Below, piece after piece: positions 3,800 to 22,110 of a stretch of 64,000 bases of DNA. The stretch lies in contig CAWCKY010000006.1 of assembly GCA_963796275.1 (NCBI GenBank), forward strand, positions 2,816,001 through 2,880,000, in the 5' to 3' direction. The notes below the pieces were generated by a model that had not been told where the DNA came from, searched no databases, and saw only the letters and a list, made by a program, of their open reading frames with translations. The translations under genes were made by a program, and so were the position numbers. This stretch comes from an uncultured Acidobacteriota bacterium. Its GTDB lineage: Bacteria > Acidobacteriota > Blastocatellia > RBC074. The stretch's first letter is position 1, and each line of letters begins with the position of its first letter.

Positions 3800-4015
3800 G
3801 CGTCCGGTGACGCGTGGTTGAGCGCCGAAGTGGCGGGCTTCCTGTTCGAAACGGCGCAGACGATCAGAATCCGGGCGATTTCGGTGAGCAGCAATTTGAT
3901 GGCGACCCGCGCCGAGCCGCTGGTCTTCAGCCAAATAGACCGCGCCGACTCCACCCGCGCCAAGTAGAGAAACAACCTCATAATGGTTGATGCGTGTGCC
4001 GGGAGTAATAATCAT
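3800..4015 (-). pseudogene. Hanks-type Ser/Thr kinase N-terminal relic
   Basis: YEVVSLLGAGGVGAVYLAED, then RVAIKLL in another frame and RLRRFEQEAR; truncated. Confidence 0.8.
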
Positions 4016-4036
4016 GTTGACTTGATATGGCGGCCT

Positions 4037-5368
4037 TTAATCGGCGATCGCTTGATAAGCCAGGACACGAAACTCCGAGCCGTATTCCAGGCCGTTGTGC
4101 GGCAAAATCTGGATCATGAAGATGCCGATCAATTCTTCCTGCGGATCAATCCAGAATCGCGTTCCGGCCGCGCCGCCCCAGTTGTATTCGCCTGGCGATC
4201 CCATCATTCCCGCTTCACCCGGAGCTTTACTGACAGCGAAACCGAGGCCGAATCCGACGCCCGGCCCCATTCCAGGAATGGCTCCCAGATTGTCGCTTCT
4301 CATCAGCTGGACGGTCTTGCGGCTGAGCAGTCGCTTGCCGCCATATTGCCCCTGGTTGAGCAACATCTGGCAAAAGCGCAGATAATCATAGGTTGTCGAA
4401 ACCAGCCCGCCGCCGCCTGAAGGCATCGTGGGCGGCTCTAGAAAGGAAGGCACGGCGTTGGGGAATTTCTCCAGGCATTCCTGCCTTGTCGCGCAAATCA
4501 CCGCCGGCTTGATTTTGCCGTCTTTGGTCGGACTGTAGAGTTTTGCAAAGCGATCCTTTTTATCGGCTGAGACATAAAATCCGGTGTCGCGCATTTCCAG
4601 CGGAGTGAAGATGCGCTCCTGCAAAAATTGTTCGAAGGATTTGCCCGACAGGACTTCAACCAGACGCCCGAGAACGTCAACCGAAACGCTGTAATGCCAG
4701 CGCGCGCCGGGCTCGTAGAGCAATGGGATATTGCTGAGGTTTGTGATGAATTCCGCCAGATTCAGATCGCTCAGTATCCCGGCCTTCCGATATTCCCGAT
4801 CAACCAGCGTGTCGCCAAAAACGCCGTATGTCAGCCCCGCCGTATGTCGCAACAGATCGCGGACCGTGATCGGGCGTTTCGCGGGCACGTTTTTGAGCGT
4901 GGGCATACCTGTCTGCGGGTCTTTTTCTTCGGTCCCCACCTGCATCTTGGCGAATTCCGGGAGATATTTGGCGACCGGATCGTTGAGCTGAAACTTGCCT
5001 TCTTCGTATAGCATCATCACCGCGACGCTGGTGATAGGTTTGCTCATCGAATAAATACGGTGAATCGTATCGAGCCGCATCGGCTTCCCCGCTTCTACAT
5101 CGGCCATGCCGAAGGTTTCCTGATAAGCGATCTTGCCGCGCCGGGCGATTAAACCGATGGCGCCTGGAATCTGTTTTTCCGCCACGTGCCGATTCATCAC
5201 TGAGCGGATGTTGGCGAGGCGAGCGCTGGTCAGGCCGACCTCTTCAGGCGCGACAGCCGGCAATTCATTGTTGCTTTTGCCGGGGGACGCGCTGGAGATT
5301 GGGCCAGACGCAGGATTGATGGACAGAGTGAGCAGAACTAACAGTAGAGAAATCAATACCCGTCTCAT
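4037..5368 (-). CDS. Serine hydrolase, class C beta-lactamase-like
   Basis: Signal peptide, YSMSK (SxxK), LLRHTAG, WHYS and WGGAAGT motifs. Confidence 0.9.
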
Positions 5369-5454: not shown

Positions 5455-6716
5455 GTCAATTACCCGCCACTAAGCTCGAAGACTCACAATAGTGGGGGCT
5501 TGCGATTCGACTCTTAGAGTCGTCCGCGATTGGCTGATTGACGGCAGCCCTGCTCCGAATGTTGAGAGCAGCGTTGATGTCGGCGTTACGGCAGTGACCG
5601 CATTGCCGACATTTGAAAACTTTTTGAGATTGCCGGTTAACTTTAGAGATATGGCCACAACTGGAACATTCACGAGAAGTGCTACGCGGGTTCACGGTAA
5701 GCACTGGCACGCGCGCGAGCTTGGCCTTGTACTCAATAAAGCAGCGCAATTGACCGAACGACCAGGAATGCAATTCAGAACGTTTAGCCTTGCGAGCCCG
5801 AACCCTCGAACGAATGCCTTTCAAGTCTTCCAATGCAATCGCTCGATTCGTGCGTTTGGCTTTGTCTACGATCTGTTTGCTGATTTGGTGATTGATGTCT
5901 TTGGCAAAGAGCGACTCTTTTCTGCGTCTCTCACGCAATCGTCTCTTTGCGCTTTTGGTTTTCTTCGCTTGCAGCCGTCGCCGAAGCTTCAAATGTCGCT
6001 TTCTCAGATTTTTAGTGTGGCTACCGGAAAACGATTTACCATCCGAATCGGCGGCGATCCGGGCAATCCCGAGATCAATGCCGAGATAGTCATCCGGGTT
6101 ATACGGCGACTCTTCGACTACATTGACCGTCGCAAACAAGTACCATCGGCCTTTACGGTAGACCAGATCAGATTCACCTTGGCGGGATGCGAGCAGAATC
6201 TTTTCTCGCTCTCCACCAACAAACGGAATCTTCTGTCTGCCTGTGACAGTCCAGATAGAAACGTAGTTTTCGCCGTAACGAAGAATTCGATCATCGAAAG
6301 CAATCGAACCGTGCTGGTGGAAGGTTCGTTGGCGTTCGTGGTCGGGCTTATACGCATCAGCCACTTTAGCGATTACTCGAACGGCAACCTGAGCGGAAAT
6401 ATCGAATTGTTCACGCAGAGCAGAGTAAGCGAGTTTATGGAGGTGAAATTGGCCGAAGGTCTTATGCTCCCACGCTATGCGCGAGCACTCACAAGCAGCT
6501 GCATTGGCTCGCTCAAGCGTCTCTTTCAATGCGGCAGCTTGCTCTTTGGTCGGATTCAGTTTCAATCCTATCGTCAATTTCATGGAACGAATAATACCAC
6601 ACTGCATTCTATACTTGAAGAGATTTTCCGTGCTAAGTCGCGCGGTCTCAAAATTCCTCTCCATCCAAGCTCGCCCAGATGCTCGTCTATGGATGGAGTA
6701 TCCTTTTGAGGTTTAG
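5455..6716 (-). mobile_element. IS200/IS605-family (IS1341-like, tnpB-only) element
   Basis: Left-end hairpin (ccatcc...ggatgg, 6661-6696) preceded by TTCAT on the minus strand; right-end hairpin CAAGCCCCCACTA...TAGTGGCGGGTAATTGAC; the flanks rejoin into a kinase gene relic. Confidence 0.75.
5456..6583 (-). CDS. tnpB: RNA-guided endonuclease TnpB
   Basis: RuvC-I GIDLG, RuvC-II ALEDL, Zn finger CSSCG...CRQCG and RuvC-III NADINAA are all intact. Confidence 0.95.
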   Translation of the reverse strand: MKLTIGLKLNPTKEQAAALKETLERANAAACECSRIAWEHKTFGQFHLHKLAYSALREQFDISAQVAVRVIAKVADAYKPDHERQRTFHQHGSIAFDDRILRYGENYVSIWTVTGRQKIPFVGGEREKILLASRQGESDLVYRKGRWYLFATVNVVEESPYNPDDYLGIDLGIARIAADSDGKSFSGSHTKNLRKRHLKLRRRLQAKKTKSAKRRLRERRRKESLFAKDINHQISKQIVDKAKRTNRAIALEDLKGIRSRVRARKAKRSELHSWSFGQLRCFIEYKAKLARVPVLTVNPRSTSRECSSCGHISKVNRQSQKVFKCRQCGHCRNADINAALNIRSRAAVNQPIADDSKSRIASPHYCESSSLVAGN

Positions 6717-7110: not shown

Positions 7111-7284
7111 ATTACGTGCGAATGTCGCTAACTGGCGGAGAAAGACGGTCTGTCTTTATTGCGGCTGACAAAATATTACTCGTCACCATTTATATGGCTA
7201 AGGGGGTACACCAGTCTCAATCTGAAGTGAGATTTCTTCCGCCATTCTGGACTTACAAAAGGCGAGGCGTTTACAATCACGGCG

Positions 7285-7725
7285 ATGCGGATTAATTGGC
7301 CGGCGACAAAAAGAATGGTTCGACTTCATTTCGCCGTCTTCATCTTGTTGTGGTGGGGCGGACTGAATTGTCTTTCCGGCTGCCTGATTCCGAAGATAGG
7401 CGCTGACGGCGAAAGCCATTGTTCGATGGGCGGCGAGGGCGGAGATTGTTGTCATATCCAGGCCGGCGGCGAAGAATCGCTTTCATCAAAATCAATCAGA
7501 GCGCCTTCCACTTCAATACAATCTTTATCATGCTGTTCTCTCCTATCGCTTTCAGGGGATGTAAGTCGTGACGTGCGAGCCGTTGACGGCGCGCCTACTT
7601 CGGCGATATTGAGTCGAGCAGGATTCATTCCTGAAAGCGGGCCTCGCGTCCAATTTCCTGACCGTTGGGTGCGCCTCCCTGATCGCGGAGGAACTCACCT
7701 CCTTCACTGTGTCTTCCTGATTTAG
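7285..7725 (+). CDS. Cys-rich membrane-anchored hypothetical protein (leader of the metal operon)
   Basis: Hydrophobic N-terminus, HC and CC motifs, C-terminal HLLHCVFLI. Confidence 0.6.
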   Translation: MRINWPATKRMVRLHFAVFILLWWGGLNCLSGCLIPKIGADGESHCSMGGEGGDCCHIQAGGEESLSSKSIRAPSTSIQSLSCCSLLSLSGDVSRDVRAVDGAPTSAILSRAGFIPESGPRVQFPDRWVRLPDRGGTHLLHCVFLI

Positions 7726-7812
7726 AAAAAAAGTTTGCACGCGGAATTCTTATCAGCGCCAGTATGCTCACTGGTCTATGGGCAAACTTTATCTAAAATA
7801 GGAGATACAACA

Positions 7813-7992
7813 ATGAAATCCGTTAAAACATTCGTCATCGCTTTAGTCCTCGGGTTGGGCGTCGTTGTGTACGCGGCCGATGGTTCACAGGCCTCAACGC
7901 GGTCTTGCTGTCTGACTGGGGCTGACTGCTGTGTCGCCGGCGCAAGTTGCTGCACGTGCAGATTGTGCTGCGCGACTCACGAAGCCAAGTGA
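7813..7992 (+). CDS. Small exported Cys-rich peptide (metallothionein-like, CC repeats)
   Basis: RBS aggaga, signal peptide, then SCCLTGADCCVAGASCCTCRLCC. Confidence 0.75.
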   Translation: MKSVKTFVIALVLGLGVVVYAADGSQASTRSCCLTGADCCVAGASCCTCRLCCATHEAK

Positions 7993-8079
7993 GCTAATCG
8001 TTAATCAAGAGGGGCGGGGGCGGACATCGTCCGCGCCCGCTCCGCGTTCAACGCACAATCAATCCAAGGAGAATTCGCA

Positions 8080-9507
8080 ATGAAACTACTCGCCACCGCG
8101 ACGCTTGGCGCCGTCTTCTTATCGCTCGTAAACTTGGGCATCGGTCTTGCCCAGGTAAAGCGTGTGGAGATGAAGATCGACGGTTACCTCTGCGGCAACT
8201 GAGTGTTCAACATCCAGAAGGCCGTGAGCCGTCTAAACTTCGCACCGAAACTCAATGAGATCGAAATCACTGACATCAAAAACGGTATCGGCGTGTTCAC
8301 GCCGAAGGCCGAGAAATCCGTCTCCTATGTGGCGCTCAAGAAGACATTGAAAAAGGCCGGTTATACGCTCGCTTCCGCGAAAATTACCGTGAACGGAAAA
8401 CTCGCGCGTGACGCCTCAGGATGGGCGCTACTGTCTGACACATCTGGTCAGCGCTTTGCTTTGGATGGAGAGGGCGTTGAACTGGCTCTACCGGACGCCG
8501 CCCCGAACGCGCAAGTAGAAGTCACTGGCGATTGGAAGTCGGCAGGGGAAGGGAAGGAAGTCATCTCTCGTTTGCCCGCAAAGAAGGCCGGGCGATCTCA
8601 CAATGAAAATGGAGATAATCCTGTCCAAACAGAATACGTCGATGTAACCTGCGGCGGTCCCATGGAAGCGGGACCGTTGCCGGTTGCTCCCATAAGGACG
8701 ACGAGCCCGGGGCTGACGGTTTATCGCGGCGGCGCGTTCACGCCGCGTTACATTTTTGTGCGGCAACAACTAGGAGGGCTGAAAGTTGATCGTAATATTA
8801 TGCTCTTGGACTTCTCCTACACTCCGACGCCGAAGCTTCTGGTAGAGGCTGAAATCCCGTTCACGTGGATTTCATTCAAAGAAGGGGCGACATCCGGTAG
8901 TGACGAGGGTATAGGTAACATCATCATTTCGGGCAAGTATCGCTTCTTTCGGCAGGTCGAGGCGTGGGGGGACCGCCAGGCAGCGCTGCGCTTCGGCTTG
9001 GAGCTTCCGACCGGGAAGGATGACGCTCCGAGCGAACAACAACTCCATGCGCCGGCATTTATACGCCAGCAGCTTTCGCCGATCAGCGGCGGCCTCTCTG
9101 CACACATTGACCTGACTTACTCGCAAGCAAAAGGCCGGTTCATTTTCGGGGGCAACGTCGAAGGCGTTCTACGCTCCGAGCGAGATGGGTTCCGGATGGG
9201 GAACGAACTTCGCATCAATACTGACCTTGAATACGTGCTCTTCCCGCGGAAGTATGACCGTCCGGGTGGGGAAGTGTTCGCCATCCTGGAATCAAACTTC
9301 ATCCGCCGCGGAACCGGGCGCGTCGCCGGCGCGCCCGTGCCCGGGAGTCGCTCTACCGAGTATTACCTTGCGCCGGGAGTCCAATACGCGATGCGTCCGA
9401 GGTTCGTCATCGAAGCTAGCTATCAAATTCCGGTGGCGCGTAACGCCGGGTCTCAAGCTCTCCGCGTCGAGCGGGGCTTACTTGTTGGCGTCAGAATACT
9501 GTACTGA
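8080..9507 (+). CDS. Putative selenoprotein: signal peptide + HMA-like domain (CxxU) + small beta domain + outer-membrane beta-barrel; 475 aa with UGA at codon 41
   Basis: RBS aaggaga, ATG 8080, MKLL...LAQVKRVEMKIDGYLCGN-TGA(8200-8202)-VFNIQKAV in frame; LKKAGY at the HMA C-terminus; barrel-like C-terminus ending in an aromatic residue (VGVRILY). Confidence 0.75.
8216..8234 (+). promoter_or_regulatory. Candidate bacterial SECIS hairpin
   Basis: AGAAGGC-CGUGA-GCCGUCU stem-loop; the G-containing apical loop starts about 21 nt after the UGA. Confidence 0.5.
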
Positions 9508-9516
9508 GGTGGACCG

Positions 9517-9996
9517 ATGACAGGAACGGCAATTACCGCAATGCTCCTGGTTGTGTTCTCTGCGCTCGTCCTGGGACAGGGCGAAAAGCCTGCTCCTAAA
9601 TTGAAGCTCAGGGATGTTGAGGGGCGCGCTCTGCGTCTGAGTGATTACAAGGGCAGAGTCGTGCTCCTCAACTTCTGGGCGACGTGGTGTGCGCCGTGCC
9701 GGGTCGAGATGCCTGACCTGGTGAAGTGGCAGCGGGAGTACAAAGGCAAGGGCCTTCAGGTTATCGGCGTCACGTACCCGCCGGAAGAATTAGCCGAGGT
9801 GCGTGAATTCATCAAAAGTATCAGAGTCAACTATCCCGTTGCTCTGGGCGAGGAACAGACGAAGGCAATGTTTGATGAAGGGGACATTCTTCCTGTCACC
9901 GTGGTGATTGATAAAAAGGGGATGATTCGTGAAGTCATCCACGGAATCATTTTCCCGGAAGAGTTTGAACATAAGGTGAAGCCGTTGCTTCGTTAG
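9517..9996 (+). CDS. TlpA/ResA-family thiol-disulfide oxidoreductase
   Basis: LNFWATWCAPCRVEMP; signal peptide. Confidence 0.9.
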   Translation: MTGTAITAMLLVVFSALVLGQGEKPAPKLKLRDVEGRALRLSDYKGRVVLLNFWATWCAPCRVEMPDLVKWQREYKGKGLQVIGVTYPPEELAEVREFIKSIRVNYPVALGEEQTKAMFDEGDILPVTVVIDKKGMIREVIHGIIFPEEFEHKVKPLLR

Positions 9997-15710: not shown

Positions 15711-16541
15711 TCAGCCAGCACATCCATCGAGCAGCTTGTAGCTCATCTCCATACCATCAGTCATGCCAGTAGAGAACGCCTCGTCGCGGTCGGCCTTCGA
15801 AGCATACTTGATCGAGGTCGCCACGTTCGTGATCCCGTCGGCTTCGTGGAAGGTGACGGTCACGATCGATGGTTCACCCCCCATGGAAACGCCCAGATCA
15901 CCCGGATCGAAGATTTGGGTATGCACGATTCTCGCGTGCGGAACGACTTCCAGGACCTCGCCAGTGAATCCAAACTCCTGGCCGTTCTCGTCACTGCGCC
16001 AGCGCCAGCGATACTTGCCGCCGACGCGCATATCCATCTCGCAGACAGGCATCGACCAACCGGGGTGGCCCGAGCACCAACGACGCATCAGGTCCGGTTC
16101 CATATACGCCCGCCACACCAGTTTGACGGGAGCATCGAAGCTCCGTTTGACCAGTACTTCGGTATCTGACGGCAGGCTTGCTTCGGCGGGTTTCATTTCT
16201 TTCGCTCCTGTTTCTCGTGCTTGTTTTAACTCGGCAAGTAACGCATCGAGACGCTTGTAGTTGCCTTCCCAAATCTCCTGCACCTGCTCCAGCCAGTCGG
16301 TGACCGCCTTCAGTCGCTCCGGCACCAGTTTGCACGGCCGCAACTGGGCCTCTTTGCGACGCGAAATCAGCCCCGCAGATTCCAGCACCTTCAAGTGCGA
16401 CGAAATCGTGGGCTGCGTCAACGAGAAGCGGCCAACCAGCTCTGACACAGAGGCCTCACCGCGGGCAAGATGCACCACGATTCCTCGTCGGGTGGGATCC
16501 GCAAGAGCGGCAAAGGCTTGGTCCAGTTGTTTCATGTGCAT
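15711..16541 (-). CDS. ArsR/SmtB regulator fused to an SRPBCC (AHSA1) domain
   Basis: FAALADPTRR..SHLKVLE.AGLI followed by RSFDAPVKLVW..CEMDMRVGG.YR. Confidence 0.85.
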   Translation of the reverse strand: MHMKQLDQAFAALADPTRRGIVVHLARGEASVSELVGRFSLTQPTISSHLKVLESAGLISRRKEAQLRPCKLVPERLKAVTDWLEQVQEIWEGNYKRLDALLAELKQARETGAKEMKPAEASLPSDTEVLVKRSFDAPVKLVWRAYMEPDLMRRWCSGHPGWSMPVCEMDMRVGGKYRWRWRSDENGQEFGFTGEVLEVVPHARIVHTQIFDPGDLGVSMGGEPSIVTVTFHEADGITNVATSIKYASKADRDEAFSTGMTDGMEMSYKLLDGCAG

Positions 16542-16781: not shown

Positions 16782-17777
16782 TTGGAATATTATTTCAGCG
16801 AGATGAAGCTTCCTTCGATCACGGTCGGCGAGATCAAGAAGTTCGCGATCTGGCTGTCTAAGATTCCCGCTCGCAGCATTATTGTTGAAGATGATAATGC
16901 AAAATTGGTTCTGAATATCAAGGAGAACGGCGGCCAGAGGAGTATTGAGTCCATCAATCGAGCGGTTGAACTATTGAGAACAGTGCTCAATTATGCGGTC
17001 GAGGAGAAGATACTCCGAGAGGAACAGAATCCTTTCTCGAAGAAGAAGGCGAGATCATTAATCGACAGACGTGCCGAGTCAAAGCGCGAGCAATTGCCGA
17101 CCTTCGGCGAAGAGATGGCGTTGCTCAAGGTTTGTACTGGAGATCGCGCTCATCTACGAGCAGTCCTCATTATCGCTGCTGATTCCGGTTTGAGAAGGAA
17201 TGAACTCTTTACTCTTTCATGGAAAGAGAAGGACATCGACTTTGAAAATCGGCTGATCAGACTCAGAGCTATCAACGCGAAATGGAATAAAGCAAGAACG
17301 ATCCCGATGACGCAGCGTGCTTACGAAGAACTGTTGAAACTCAAAGAGCAGTATGGCGATCATCCATCGGGCCTTGTGTTTGGGGGGATTAAAGAAGTGA
17401 AAAGATCATTCAATACAGCCTGTCGCTTGACGGGGATTGAAGACCTCCACAAACACGACCTCCGGCACGCATTCGTCACGCGCTCAATCCTGGCAGGCAT
17501 ACCACCGGCTATGGCTTTGAAGGCCAGCGGCCATAGTTCGGATGAATGGAAGCGATATCTCAATGTGACACCGGATATGCTTCATGATTTGTTTACGCCT
17601 CTGGAAGGCCAGGAAAGCGAGGTTGTCAAAGCTTATGGATTTGAAGTGATGCGCCAGTTGACAGAGGCGCTAATGGGATATTGGAAGACAGGGGGAAACG
17701 GCGCATTTTTCCAAGAACTGCGTGCCAGAGTTGAAATGCCAACTGGATCAGGTCAACGCCAGGCGCAAATGCCATAA
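16782..17777 (+). pseudogene. Tyrosine integrase, N-terminal ~108 aa (arm-binding region) deleted
   Basis: Catalytic R, HDLRH, GH and Y are retained; homology to 29025 starts abruptly at 16777. Confidence 0.85.
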
Positions 17778-18891: not shown

Positions 18892-19428
18892 GCGCGCGCG
18901 CGCGTCACCGCGGGATTCGCGAACGATGTTGATGCCGTGAACCAATAAGCGGCGGTGATGTAAGCGCCAACGGCATAAGGAGCTGCATCGGAACGCCGCC
19001 GCGTCACTCCCCAAATGACCGATAGAAGCCCAAAGGTGGCAACAAACTCACTGAACATTTGTGCTGCGCCGCCCCGCGCATGGAGTGCAACTGAAAAGAG
19101 GCGCTCATCGAACATCAGGTGGGCGGGGTAGCCACCCCTACGAACGCGCCACATACTTGATCTGCAATATACGACGGAACCTCGCGCCATCGAATGCCGC
19201 CCTGTGAGGCGTCAGCGAGAGTTACTGCCGGGTTGAAGTGAGCTCCGGAGATAGGCCCGAAGGTCAGGATGAGAGCAACCAGCGCTGCGCCAGTCGCCAG
19301 GGTTGGCGAGTAACGCGATGGCGACATTACCGCCGGCCAGTCGTTCCCATGATTCCGGAACCGATCACAGTCGCCAGCAGCAGCGCCGATCCCATAGCCT
19401 CCGCGACACTTCGCCGAATAAGACTCAT
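18892..19428 (-). pseudogene. Aquaporin/MIP channel (arsenic AqpS-like), frameshifted and 3' truncated
   Basis: GPISGAHFNPAVT and WFTASTSFANPAVT motifs in different frames. Confidence 0.85.
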
Positions 19429-19901
19429 CGCTCGATCCTGTGCTCCTCAGGCTGAATGTCGACCTTCATTAAAGCCGCCGAGGAGCAACGCGGCAGCCGC
19501 CATTCCGGCGATTGTGCGAGGCGTTCGTCGTAGTCCTCACGAACTGTTACTGAGAATCCGAATTTCTTCTCGAAGAAATCCCTAGCGGTGGTCGTCAACA
19601 GTAGAGCTTCGCTGATGCCTTGCCGTGCAGCATCCTGAAGAATCGCCTCTGTCAGTCGAGTTCCGAGACCAGACCGCTGAAGCTCCGGTGTGACGGCTGC
19701 CGACCGCAGCAAGCCAAGTCTACCGTGCCGCTCGATCCCGGCGCAGCCGATCAGACGACCCTTATTGTCTCTGGCGATGAGGAAGCCACCGAGATGTTCG
19801 GCTACTCCGTCAGGAGGCAGATCGACGGTATTAAGCAGCGAAAGAATTTCCTCAAGGTCTGAAACTTCCGCCTTTGAGATCATGACTTGTGGTGATTCCA
19901 T
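19425..19901 (-). CDS. arsN2: Arsenic-resistance GNAT N-acetyltransferase (ArsN2-like)
   Basis: GLLRSAAV..GLG..L.LLTTTA.DFF..GF..C; ars cluster context. Confidence 0.7.
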   Translation of the reverse strand: MESPQVMISKAEVSDLEEILSLLNTVDLPPDGVAEHLGGFLIARDNKGRLIGCAGIERHGRLGLLRSAAVTPELQRSGLGTRLTEAILQDAARQGISEALLLTTTARDFFEKKFGFSVTVREDYDERLAQSPEWRLPRCSSAALMKVDIQPEEHRIER

Positions 19902-19979
19902 TACTGTACGCAGTTATCAAGCGATCTGTAAGCGCGCCAAGCCGCAGCATGCGGTTTCCCTCTCGAATGCGAAAGACGT

Positions 19980-21017
19980 TTACTTTAGTTTGTTGTCCAA
20001 CTCCAGACGTCGATGAGCCTGCATCAAGACACAGAGCATGAGGCGTCCGATGTCATCGCGTCGCTCAGCGTATTTCGCAGCCTCAAACTCAGCGCCGTCA
20101 TACTCCTTCGGGTCGGCGTATGGCGCCGAGATTCTTTTGACAGCTCCCTTAACAATCGGACATTCGGCGTCCGCTTGATTGCAAACCATAATGGCAGCAA
20201 AACCGCTCTGGGGATTATTAACGTCGGAGTAAATCTTCGAGAACTCCAAAGTCTCCAGTCCCGTTCCCCACCGGATTCGGTAGATCGGATTTGCTTCACC
20301 GGAACTCCCACGGGAAGCTTCCTTCCCTGATGGCTCCACCTCGACGCCGATCTCCTTGAGAGTCGCTACTGTCCTCGGGTTGAACGCGCTTGGCGTTGTG
20401 CCGCCGCTGTAGAAGTAAATGTCCGGCAGCCCGTAATAGGCTGCGGCGATGTTGCCCATCGTCGAGCCCAGGATGCTACGCCGAGAATTGCCAGTGCAGA
20501 CGACGATGACAGCCAGGGGCTTGCCGGGCTGGTAGTTCGTGCTGATCCAAGCTACCAACTCGTCCGCCGCCGCGCGGTGGCGCTCTTCGATCAGATCGAA
20601 CTGAGTGGTAAGCAGATCGGCCTGACGCCGGACCTTCAAGAACATATCTTCGCGGGAGCGTGGTGTTTTTTCATTTAACATGCGTTCCATCTCCGGCAGA
20701 GTGATGTAGTCATTGGCGCTTGCGAAGCTCTGGAAAACACGTTTCTCAAACACCTCGCTCACCAGATTCCAGGATAGTCCCGCCTTCTTGGCTCGTAGAG
20801 TTTCGCCCAAAGTGGTTTTGAGCTGGCGGTCTTTGCTCGGTGTCAGCGCATGTGGCTCCGCGTACAGGTGCGAAAACCATAAAGCCGTGACCAGCGGGTT
20901 GCCAGGCTTACCCGCTGGTTGAATTTTAACCGCCCGAGCCGGCATTTGTGTGGCGAGAATACAGAGCGTGACAGCGCCAGCTAAGATAATCCCTCGTCGA
21001 ATCATGCCGTTGGTCAC
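19980..21017 (-). CDS. LMW-PTPase/arsenate reductase-like protein with signal peptide and N-terminal extension
   Basis: VCTGNSRRS P-loop, YSGGT..AFNPR, CPIV.GA and DPK motifs. Confidence 0.75.
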   Translation of the reverse strand: MTNGMIRRGIILAGAVTLCILATQMPARAVKIQPAGKPGNPLVTALWFSHLYAEPHALTPSKDRQLKTTLGETLRAKKAGLSWNLVSEVFEKRVFQSFASANDYITLPEMERMLNEKTPRSREDMFLKVRRQADLLTTQFDLIEERHRAAADELVAWISTNYQPGKPLAVIVVCTGNSRRSILGSTMGNIAAAYYGLPDIYFYSGGTTPSAFNPRTVATLKEIGVEVEPSGKEASRGSSGEANPIYRIRWGTGLETLEFSKIYSDVNNPQSGFAAIMVCNQADAECPIVKGAVKRISAPYADPKEYDGAEFEAAKYAERRDDIGRLMLCVLMQAHRRLELDNKLK

Positions 21018-21130
21018 TCAAAATAAACAGGATCGATTGCCGCCTAACTTCAGATAGGCCGCCACCACCTGGATTCCCGGAATGATTTCGACTCCGCGTC
21101 TCCGAAGCTTAAATCATTCCGGAATATTGT

Positions 21131-21607
21131 TTAACTCTTCGTGATACCGACGAAGCCTGGTATCGATGCGCCACAGCACTCGCCGATTGCCGCCCCGCTT
21201 TCCTCGGGCAGGTTGTCTTCCAGGACGACGAACACCTCCCACTCATTGCCATCAGGATCGGTGACCCAAGTCTTGTCCTGAATCGCGTAACAGCAGTTGG
21301 TTTGCATCTCGTCGCGGGTATCGAGTCCCGCTATCGCCCATTGCTCCCGCATTGCAAGGACGTCATCGGTCGAAGCAACCTGAATCCCCATGTGGGAGAG
21401 TGCGCCGCGTTCGTTGAAAGATATTTCATTCAGGGCGAGGTTGAGTGGCGGGTTTTGCACATCAAACTTGGCGTAACCCGTCCTGACCTTGCTCGGCTCA
21501 ATCCCCAGCATCTTTTTGTAAAACTCCACGCTTTGCTCGACGTTACGGACGTTGAGAGCGACATGAGCCTTGATCGTCTGCACAGTTCTGGTATTTTTAG
21601 CGTTCAC
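21131..21607 (-). CDS. ArsI/CadI-family VOC (glyoxalase-like) metalloenzyme
   Basis: HVALNV, GYAKF..NPPLNL, CCYA.QDK.WV.DPDGN.WE motifs. Confidence 0.9.
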   Translation of the reverse strand: MNAKNTRTVQTIKAHVALNVRNVEQSVEFYKKMLGIEPSKVRTGYAKFDVQNPPLNLALNEISFNERGALSHMGIQVASTDDVLAMREQWAIAGLDTRDEMQTNCCYAIQDKTWVTDPDGNEWEVFVVLEDNLPEESGAAIGECCGASIPGFVGITKS

Positions 21608-21710
21608 CTTTGTCTCCTTCTACGCTCTGATTATCGAGCGTGTCTTCAGACTAGCAGTGAAAAATATATGCGTCAAGGCGAATATGTTTTAGTGATATCA
21701 TGATTGTGTT

Positions 21711-22110
21711 ATGAGCCGAGCAAATAAGAGTTTCGACCTCGAAAAATTCTTCGTCGCGCTTTCCGACCGCAATCGCCTACGCTTGATTAACCTGATGGGG
21801 GACGATGAGGTCTGTGTGTGCTTCTTCAGCGAAATTCTGAAGATGCCGCAGCCGAGGGTCTCGCGGCATCTCGCCTACCTGCGCCATGCCGGGAATAGTG
21901 GTGGCCCGTCGGGAAGGGAAATGGATGCACTACCGCCTCATTCCTCCGACCGACGAACATGCTTCGCATATCCTTCAAAACGTGCGCGAATATCTTTCGG
22001 GTAATCGAGAGATGCAGCAGGATCGGGCGCGCCTGATCAATATCTGCTGCGCGCCGTCGCTTCCGGTGCAGTTGCAAGGCGCGCCACTCCCCGCAAGTTT
22101 ACAGGTCTGA
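21711..22110 (+). pseudogene. arsR: ArsR repressor (frameshift near 21890)
   Basis: ALSDRNRLRL..EVCVC..VSRHLAYLR, continuing VVARREGKWMHY in another frame; divergent from the ars genes. Confidence 0.85.

Follow-up and report, generated by a model that had tools for sequence, protein, structure and literature searches.

Does an in-frame TGA near the start of a gene for a predicted outer-membrane protein break that gene, or does it encode selenocysteine (Sec)? Here, we analysed this question for a window of 64,000 nt (the whole stretch of DNA under study) from contig CAWCKY010000006.1 of an uncultured member of the Acidobacteriota; all coordinates are positions in this window. Its forward strand holds a frame of 475 codons plus stop (8080-9507) with one TGA, at codon 41. 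A mechanical list of open reading frames (ORFs) gives only a 434-codon ORF with GTG 8203 as start. A preliminary description of the locus had proposed that a ribosome-binding site and an ATG at 8080 open the same frame, and that the TGA encodes the Sec of a C-x-x-U motif in an exported metal-binding domain fused to an outer-membrane beta-barrel. Direct reading of the landmarks (ATG 8080-8082, TGA 8200-8202, GTG 8203, stop TGA 9505-9507) confirmed the codons at both the listed start and the upstream one, and translation with TGA as U yielded 475 residues, MKLLATATLGAVFLSLVNLGIGLAQVKRVEMKIDGYLCGN-U-VFNIQKAVSRL..., interrupted by the TGA at 8200-8202 alone. Our results suggest, with a probability of roughly 0.9, that 8080-9507 is a real Sec-decoding gene, the insertion of Sec being what we infer from the comparisons below. 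With hardly less confidence, we expect its product to combine an HMA-type domain, an OB-like domain, a linker and a barrel.

Little of this can be seen in public records. The best 120 database matches, named 'transporter', 'hypothetical protein' or 'MetA-pathway', all start after the TGA and lack the first 41 residues. Because gene callers start there, neither the signal peptide nor the metal site nor the selenium is visible. As the preliminary description had pointed out, the barrel would have no signal peptide unless the UGA is read through: a signal peptide is present solely 5' of the TGA. The AAGGAG context found 5' of the upstream ATG is shared by the closest orthologues. When the window was scanned for further frames with a TGA and a nearby Cys, only noise-like matches came up.

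Conservation of the TGA and the Sec machinery

Homologous DNA was collected from three sources: 61 related genomes; contigs of a one-genome-per-species collection (14 loci labelled Blastocatellia, Pyrinomonadaceae, Pyrinomonadales or Acidobacteriota, plus one labelled Heliomicrobium); and metagenome contigs, from which the best 80 of 404 stretches encoding a relative were used. This gave 101 tblastn rows, 100 of which cover the column of residue 41. The codon at this position is TGA in 99 of the 100 locus rows and TAA in the remaining one. Reduced to unique contexts of 171 nt (n = 92), TGA occurs 91 times, TAA once and a Cys codon never. All 74 full-length metagenome matches contain exactly one in-frame stop, a TGA, and no frameshift, and the orthologue alignments show coding conservation on both flanks of the TGA.

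Members of the family are frequent in one class of soil Acidobacteria: 70 of 401 evenly drawn genomes have the gene, in addition to the 404 metagenome stretches. Several of the carriers (G556, G614, G352, G457) are genomes of 1-5 contigs. Among the 69 class-sample rows that span the N-terminus, 66 (from 65 genomes) have one TGA, two have none (both from genome G537) and one has TAA (the second copy of the source genome). The TGA column was verified in 9 of 9 further Sec loci of this sample, with TGC at that place in G537; for the other rows the result is a count of stops. With 65 Sec genomes against one Cys genome, the family is almost fixed in the Sec state. In a sample of 301 genomes from the whole phylum, the fusion occurred only in the source genome and in one more of the same class.

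Cys at the Sec position was found in related forms. The locus in G537 (L142) encodes the full-length fusion with TGC in one continuous ORF. A profile of the N-terminal 140 residues, compared with 1.84 billion representative sequences, matched 334 proteins, most of which begin at profile position 17, directly past the Sec column, as expected of truncated gene calls. Twenty of the 334 were compared at the Sec column. It is occupied by Cys in three close relatives, namely P0170 (C-S-M-C, a complete 473-residue fusion in Cys form), P0156 (C-N-S-C) and P0199 (C-S-M-C), and all of 16 distant exported proteins of about 180 residues with HMA and beta-domain have C-x-x-C there. The C-x-x-C motifs of copper-ATPase HMA domains in the PDB likewise align to C38 and U41. 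Two automatic gene calls, P0191 from among the twenty and P0122, print W at the column, which most likely reflects TGA translated under another genetic code. A conserved in-frame UGA together with Cys homologues at the same site is the classical signature of a selenoprotein gene. The preliminary description had asked for exactly this comparison and named TGC or TGT throughout the close homologues as an outcome that would contradict it; TGA turned out to dominate, with Cys confined to related forms. The TGA and TGC forms make up a natural Sec/Cys pair, which could be used to test what selenium contributes to the metal site.

The source genome (9.46 Mb, 94.7% complete) is equipped for Sec insertion, as had also been requested as a check. 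Its selA (559.8 bits), selB (335.9 bits), selD (358.7 bits) and tRNA-Sec (62.6 bits) all score over curated cut-offs, and both selD and fdhA (formate dehydrogenase alpha subunit) have in-frame TGAs of their own. As selA exceeds its cut-off in 57 of the 61 relatives, the Sec trait is general in the class and does not discriminate between carriers and non-carriers of the gene. UGA is nevertheless an ordinary stop codon here, since the gene itself terminates in TGA (9505-9507).

The putative SECIS hairpin

Bacterial selenocysteine insertion sequences (SECIS) are stem-loops just 3' of the UGA whose apical loop has G/U. For the hairpin that the preliminary description had placed about 13 nt after the UGA, position and sequence held up; its 'G-led' loop did not, as C comes first and G second, and an A/G mismatch in the stem (8219 vs 8231) has to be added. 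The element consists of the stem halves AGAAGGC (8216-8222) and GCCGTCT (8228-8234) around the loop CGTGA (8223-8227). Both stems are invariant in 91 of the 92 unique sequences. The sole recurrent change, from CGUGA to AGUUA in three sequences, is confined to two loop positions, is synonymous at both and keeps G-U at loop positions 2-3, which gives the loop pattern N-G-U-K-A. Codons 47-51 (K-A-V-S-R, with 2-, 4-, 4-, 6- and 6-fold degeneracy) have a minor-synonymous-codon fraction of 0.013, compared with a mean of 0.36 in 28 other codons at which the amino acid is conserved to 90% or more. RNAalifold recovers the hairpin from 82 sequences. The apical GGC-CGUGA-GCC is retained in L053, the most distant Sec form (42% identity), where different flanking bases pair. 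The Cys-form gene has AAG GCC GTA AGT CTT as the corresponding codons 47-51: the hairpin core is broken by synonymous changes (GTA, AGT) at exactly the frozen sites, plus a change of R to L. Synonymous sites that are frozen in Sec forms, and a hairpin that is lost in the Cys form, are what a SelB-binding element should show. The hairpins of selD, fdhA and the present gene share G-U in their loops, which presumably also fits the E. coli element. Genome-wide, the core occurs only at this gene and at its pseudogene copy, so it is not a shared SECIS sequence; a looser pattern of TGA plus hairpin has one further, chance-like match, on contig C1. If functional, the hairpin would be a useful minimal SECIS for the phylum, on which programs that predict selenoprotein genes could be trained.

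Several observations weigh against a hairpin-directed decoding of the UGA. The region 8195-8260 has a minimum free energy of -9.7 kcal/mol (z = 0.66), and 153 of 200 shuffled sequences fold equally well; folding energy was therefore rejected as support for the hairpin. By itself the hairpin is weak (-4.8 to -5.6 kcal/mol), in contrast to the genome's selD and fdhA, where the 60 nt that follow the UGA fold to -21 and -24 kcal/mol. None of the 12 pairs in the RNAalifold consensus shows compensatory base changes. As the stems never vary, covariation has nothing to act on, and the structure rests on conservation instead. Two class-sample loci have CGA for CGT and thereby lose a lower-stem pair, so the strictly invariant core shrinks to AAGGCCGTGAGCCG. 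Rfam has no match at gathering thresholds in the window, and around the site only a chance-level match to Mahella-1 (E 3.2). Among the listed sequencing runs there is no RNA run that contains the stretch, the best share of any run being 0.13. Contigs of four soil or sediment runs, at 85% likeness, place 0 of 40 listed differences in 8161-8276 (432 more differences lie beyond those listed), a comparison that adds little.

Side observations concern the surrounding nucleotides. RNAalifold also pairs UGCG (8191-8194, codons 38-39) with CGCA (8241-8244, codons 54-55), a pairing that encloses the UGA and the hairpin and for which only one-sided, wobble-compatible changes were seen. Synonymous change is also reduced at codons 38, 39 and 42-46.

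But could the frame be explained without Sec? Mobile elements in the region (a TnpB gene and an integrase-like ORF) and a second gene copy in the same genome that is truly broken, with TAA and a truncation beside a transposase-like ORF, might suggest a pseudogene, a nonsense mutation or an assembly error. We regard this explanation as refuted: the same TGA stands in 91 unique sequences without any other stop or frameshift, both flanks are conserved at the protein level, and its recurrence in many independent assemblies excludes a sequencing error. Two genes, i.e. a 40-codon leader ORF ending at the TGA and a separate barrel gene starting with GTG 8203, would account for a GTG directly after the TGA and for the way in which the best 120 database matches are all called. 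Such a division would however cut through the metal-binding loop of the HMA fold and deprive an outer-membrane protein of its signal peptide. Moreover, the codon after the TGA is no start codon in at least 14 of the 92 unique sequences (GTA in 5, GTC in 9), and the Cys form is one continuous ORF; we consider this arrangement highly improbable. Scarcely better are the prospects of a read-through of UGA 41 without Sec, by a near-cognate Trp, Cys or Arg tRNA or by a suppressor. The W printed in P0122 and P0191 and the weakness of the hairpin would agree with it, but the W calls are automatic and are most simply taken as TGA under another code, UGA is an ordinary stop in this gene, homologues have a metal-ligand Cys at this position, and selD and fdhA make use of a Sec machinery that is complete in this genome. 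A SelB site would, in addition, lead one to expect the frozen nucleotides downstream. We retain Sec as the most probable residue at codon 41.

Domain architecture and related systems

Full-length AlphaFold modelling on 68 sequences (pLDDT 78, pTM 0.72) and separate modelling of the N-terminal part (pLDDT 88.8) bear out, together with Pfam, the succession of signal peptide, HMA domain with CxxU and outer-membrane barrel that the preliminary description had read from the translation. The predicted signal peptide has K2, a hydrophobic core and small residues ahead of Q25; its position and character are conserved in 13 orthologues, and the model shows a helix at residues 2-17. Residues 26-97 follow the beta-alpha-beta-beta-alpha-beta order in both models. 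The top Foldseek matches of the N-terminal module are ZiaA-N, CopZ, MerP, Atx1 and ATP7B (target TM 0.7-0.84, rmsd about 2 A), and Pfam HMA (PF00403) scores 25.5 bits against a cut-off of 24.8 when residues 26-165 are searched separately. The small beta domain that follows has weak Foldseek matches to PriB/SSB OB folds (target TM 0.40-0.47). The linker (residues 166-211) has pLDDT values below 50 and differs in length among orthologues; P204-Y215 is invariant or nearly so. The barrel occupies residues 217-474 of the model with 12-13 strand segments and matches Pfam PF13557 with 40.5 bits (cut-off 22, E 4.3e-10). Its best Foldseek matches are FapF (5o65) and the COG4313 channel 4rl8 (E 3e-11 to 7e-11, target TM 0.73-0.76, with 0.76 for 4rl8), ahead of the autotransporter beta-domains EspP, BrkA, NalP and Hbp (target TM 0.47-0.61).

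As a side observation, Pfam HMA has no match at E <= 0.001 across the 9.46-Mb source genome (48 candidates scored), although 13 of 14 control genomes have a match over the cut-off; the source genome may have no HMA-like domain other than the divergent one with Sec.

Sec in HMA-type domains is already known. The only NCBIfam match of the protein, NF041115 (UxxU_metal_bind; 17.6 bits against a cut-off of 95), likewise combines an HMA/CopZ-like fold with Sec in the C-x-x-C metal site. It is however a stand-alone model of 74 positions with U-x-x-U, whereas the present protein has C-x-x-U, is exported and is fused to an OB-like domain and a barrel. Table 1 of PMC13188914 lists the NF041115 type as 'putative mercuric reductase' and a cation-transporting ATPase selenoprotein with UxxC. 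In this ATPase and in NF045683 (MerT/CopZ fusion), Sec is likewise located in an HMA-type domain fused to a soft-metal membrane transporter; NF045683 gave no match to the protein at E up to 0.1. ATPase and MerT types are inner-membrane proteins. The partner of the present domain, in contrast, is an outer-membrane beta-barrel. Compared with MerP, CopZ and Atx1, which have the same fold with two ligands at loop 1/helix 1 (MerP also being periplasmic), identity is 14-29% over about 72 residues, G-Y-L-C-G-N-U replaces G-M-x-C-x-x-C, and the domain is tethered to a channel.

On the barrel side, Pput2725 (4RL8) and FapF (5O65) share the 12 strands and the membership in PF13557 at an identity of 12-15%, but lack an HMA domain; COG4313 has been connected with hydrophobic molecules, FapF with the secretion of amyloid. 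According to the accessible part of PMC4493636, COG4313 channels are 12-stranded and their first ~14 residues enter the lumen from the periplasmic face. The conserved PVAPIRTTSPGLTVY before strand 1 may be the counterpart of this lumen plug in Pput2725, with low model confidence up to residue 211. Two catalogued predicted outer-membrane selenoproteins, one of them with CxxU, have unrelated barrels and domain contexts as far as the accessible part of the catalogue describes them, and neither model matched.

The preliminary description had called the architecture undescribed. This stands for the fusion, as a combination of HMA and PF13557 barrel is none of the 119 prokaryotic selenoprotein families in the accessible part of the 2026 catalogue PMC13188914; it does not stand for Sec in HMA domains, for which NF041115, NF045683 and the ATPase are precedents. 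The accessible parts of PMC9312934 and PMC12013277 contain no HMA-barrel selenoprotein, NCBIfam selenoprotein models other than NF041115 did not match, and literature searches returned no description of the family, although supplementary tables could hold one. The family is thus an uncatalogued selenoprotein family with a new architecture. If our reading is correct, it is an exported, outer-membrane-anchored addition to the few metal-linked selenoproteins.

The two halves of the fusion also exist as neighbours. In two relatives, a MetA-type barrel gene adjoins a gene for an exported HMA and beta-domain protein, with UxxU in G014 and CxxC in G056. The former (L038, contig C45, 1429-1944) has two in-frame TGAs (G-M-I-U-G-L-U), lies directly after the PF13557 barrel gene and reaches 41 of the 95 bits that NF041115 requires; possibly it is another UxxU selenoprotein that has escaped annotation, and a split counterpart of the fusion. 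The split arrangement ties soluble module and barrel together functionally and favours a periplasmic location of the module.

Apart from these, a short form was noticed in L053 (JBPCNK010000171.1, about 3959-4303), with signal peptide, HMA domain with C-G-R-U and the same apical hairpin; it ends about 75 residues past the Sec codon and has no in-frame barrel (42% identity). The source genome's second copy (L025, G000:C1:90761-92511) has 88% nt identity to window positions 7241-8988, TAA at the Sec codon and homology that ends within the barrel, at residue ~305. It is a decaying duplicate and the only case found that has neither TGA nor Cys. This copy ends close to an IS256-like transposase ORF, and ORFs resembling ArsC, aquaporin and ArsM lie just 5' of it (all from translations only).

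Possible function and genomic surroundings

Why should soil Acidobacteria spend selenium on an outer-membrane protein? The gene directly downstream encodes an exported TlpA/ResA-like thiol:disulfide oxidoreductase (NCBIfam ResA 4.9e-30 and TlpA 1.5e-24, both under their cut-offs; Pfam AhpC-TSA and Redoxin). The pairing recurs in 12 related loci and, the Cys form included, in 10 of 10 class-sample loci; of 65 metagenome loci with 450 nt or more of downstream sequence, 49 have it. We propose that UGA 41 would be read as Sec by SelA, SelB, SelD and tRNA-Sec, directed by the hairpin, and that the mature protein would consist of the HMA-type domain with Cys38-x-x-Sec41, the OB-like domain, the flexible linker and the COG4313/FapF-like barrel. 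The N-terminal module would be located in the periplasm, flexibly tethered to its own channel. Its thiol/selenol pair might capture soft metal(loid) or organometal(loid) species and pass them to the channel, or take them from it, and the co-transcribed TlpA-like reductase might keep the Cys-Sec pair reduced. For this proposed mechanism of metal handling, we see about even odds.

A more specific version is that the family represents outer-membrane-tethered Sec metallochaperones, in which aerobic soil Acidobacteria would spend selenium on a periplasmic Cys-Sec trap coupled to a channel of the hydrophobic-molecule type. Candidate ligands would then be neutral or organic soft-metal(loid) species, such as organomercurials, methylated arsenicals or complexes of Hg, Cu or Ag, but not free ions, and the SECIS would be unusually small, with an invariant core of only 14 nt. 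We put this version forward tentatively, as possible rather than probable. Three findings count against metal handling: the Pfam HMA score drops to 22.7 bits when the whole protein is searched, under the cut-off of 24.8; the flanks give no clue to a ligand, as past the TlpA-like gene they differ from locus to locus, with methyltransferases, a P-type ATPase fragment, an aminoglycoside kinase and integrases among them; and COG4313 channels are thought to carry hydrophobic molecules, not ions, according to the accessible part of PMC4493636.

The Cys-x-x-Sec pair could instead be a redox centre, with the module as the terminus of an electron relay fed by TlpA, which would reduce an outer-membrane substrate such as a disulfide, a peroxide or an oxidised metalloid (selenite, tellurite, arsenate). 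In known selenoproteins, CxxU and UxxC are mostly redox motifs (PMC13188914, accessible part), a thiol:disulfide reductase gene is the most constant neighbour, and the likeness to HMA domains is weak by sequence. What makes us consider a redox centre unlikely is that fold and motif position match metal-binding HMA domains and that the nearest NCBIfam models are metallochaperones and MerP. TlpA-type reductases also keep the metal-binding cysteines of copper chaperones reduced, so the TlpA-like neighbour does not discriminate between the two functions. Still less likely, in our view, is a display resembling that of autotransporters, in which HMA and OB-like domains would be threaded as a passenger through the barrel to scavenge or sequester metal at the cell surface. 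The order of signal peptide, soluble domains, linker and C-terminal 12-stranded barrel is that of type Va autotransporters, whose beta-domains are found among the Foldseek matches, and the COG4313 fold is said to resemble an autotransporter after cleavage (PMC4493636, accessible part). FapF and the COG4313 channel are nonetheless the better matches, the linker has no predicted helix, no autotransporter Pfam family matched, and relatives encode the HMA-OB module as an exported protein of its own, beside the barrel gene. The constant partner, the TlpA-like reductase, would moreover be expected in the periplasm, judging from its family. Metal handling by a periplasmic module is the function that we favour.

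The positions of all features are collected in Table 1. Upstream of the gene lie two Cys-rich reading frames without Pfam or NCBIfam family. For the 146-residue protein, the ESM Atlas contains unnamed Acidobacteriota clusters only; homologues of it precede the gene in 7 related loci, 19 of the 56 metagenome loci that extend 900 nt or more upstream have one as well, and Pyrinomonadaceae-type loci have a different Cys-rich exported protein at this place. The upstream Cys-rich protein is a variable partner of the operon that differs between sub-lineages. The small exported peptide has homologues in 4 close loci.

Table 1 Features in the 64,000-nt window, sorted by position.
Feature	Position	Strand	Remarks
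IS200/IS605-type TnpB (OrfB_IS605 + Cas12f1-like TNB domain)	5456-6664	-	directly upstream of operon
Cys-rich protein, 146 aa	7285-7725	+	one hydrophobic N-terminal segment (LWWGGLNCLSGC...); DCCH, SCCS
Small Cys-rich exported peptide, 60 aa from ATG 7810	7810-7992	+	CC..CC..CC motifs; ORF 7735-7992
Shine-Dalgarno AAGGAG	8066-8071	+	8 nt 5' of ATG 8080; read from sequence
Predicted selenoprotein gene	8080-9507	+	475 codons + stop; single in-frame TGA, codon 41
Predicted signal peptide, residues 1-25 (...GLAQ/VK)	8080-8154	+	no lipobox Cys; read from sequence
HMA-like (ferredoxin-fold) metal-binding domain, residues 26-97	8155-8370	+	models, Foldseek, Pfam
C38-G-N-U41 motif	8191-8202	+	TGA 8200-8202 as probable Sec codon; motif G-Y-L-C-G-N-U
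Putative SECIS hairpin AGAAGGC-CGUGA-GCCGUCU	8216-8234	+	13 nt 3' of TGA
Invariant hairpin core AAGGCCGTGAGCCG	8218-8231	+	
OB-like small beta domain, residues 97-163	8368-8568	+	strands in both models
Variable linker, predicted disordered, residues 166-211	8575-8712	+	ends in conserved PVAPIRTTSPGLTVY before strand 1
Outer-membrane beta-barrel, 12-stranded, COG4313/Phenol_MetA_deg type	8713-9504	+	ends in aromatic Y475
Exported TlpA/ResA-like thiol:disulfide oxidoreductase	9517-9996	+	WATWCAPC; 10 nt after selenoprotein stop
ArsR-like/SRPBCC-like fusion ORF	15711-16541	-	translation only
Integrase-like ORF	16782-17777		from translation
GNAT/ArsN-like ORF	19425-19901	-	translation only
ORF with LMW-PTP/ArsC-like C-terminus	19980-21017	-	translation only
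Glyoxalase/ArsI-like ORF, vicinal Cys pair	21131-21607	-	translation only
ArsR-like ORF	21711-22004		translation only

Further downstream, the ORFs at 19425-22004 resemble an arsenic-resistance island, as read from their translations. In the source genome, arsenic-resistance-like ORFs are found no further than a few kb to about 10 kb from either copy of the gene, a suggestive proximity that we did not use as evidence.

A gene copy 78% identical to that of the window is located on a 113-kb contig labelled 'Heliomicrobium sp.' (L042, JAJNQA010000022.1). Heliomicrobium is a name from the Firmicutes and as such at odds with a gene for an outer-membrane barrel; the label is probably a binning or labelling error, the other labels being Blastocatellia and Pyrinomonadaceae.

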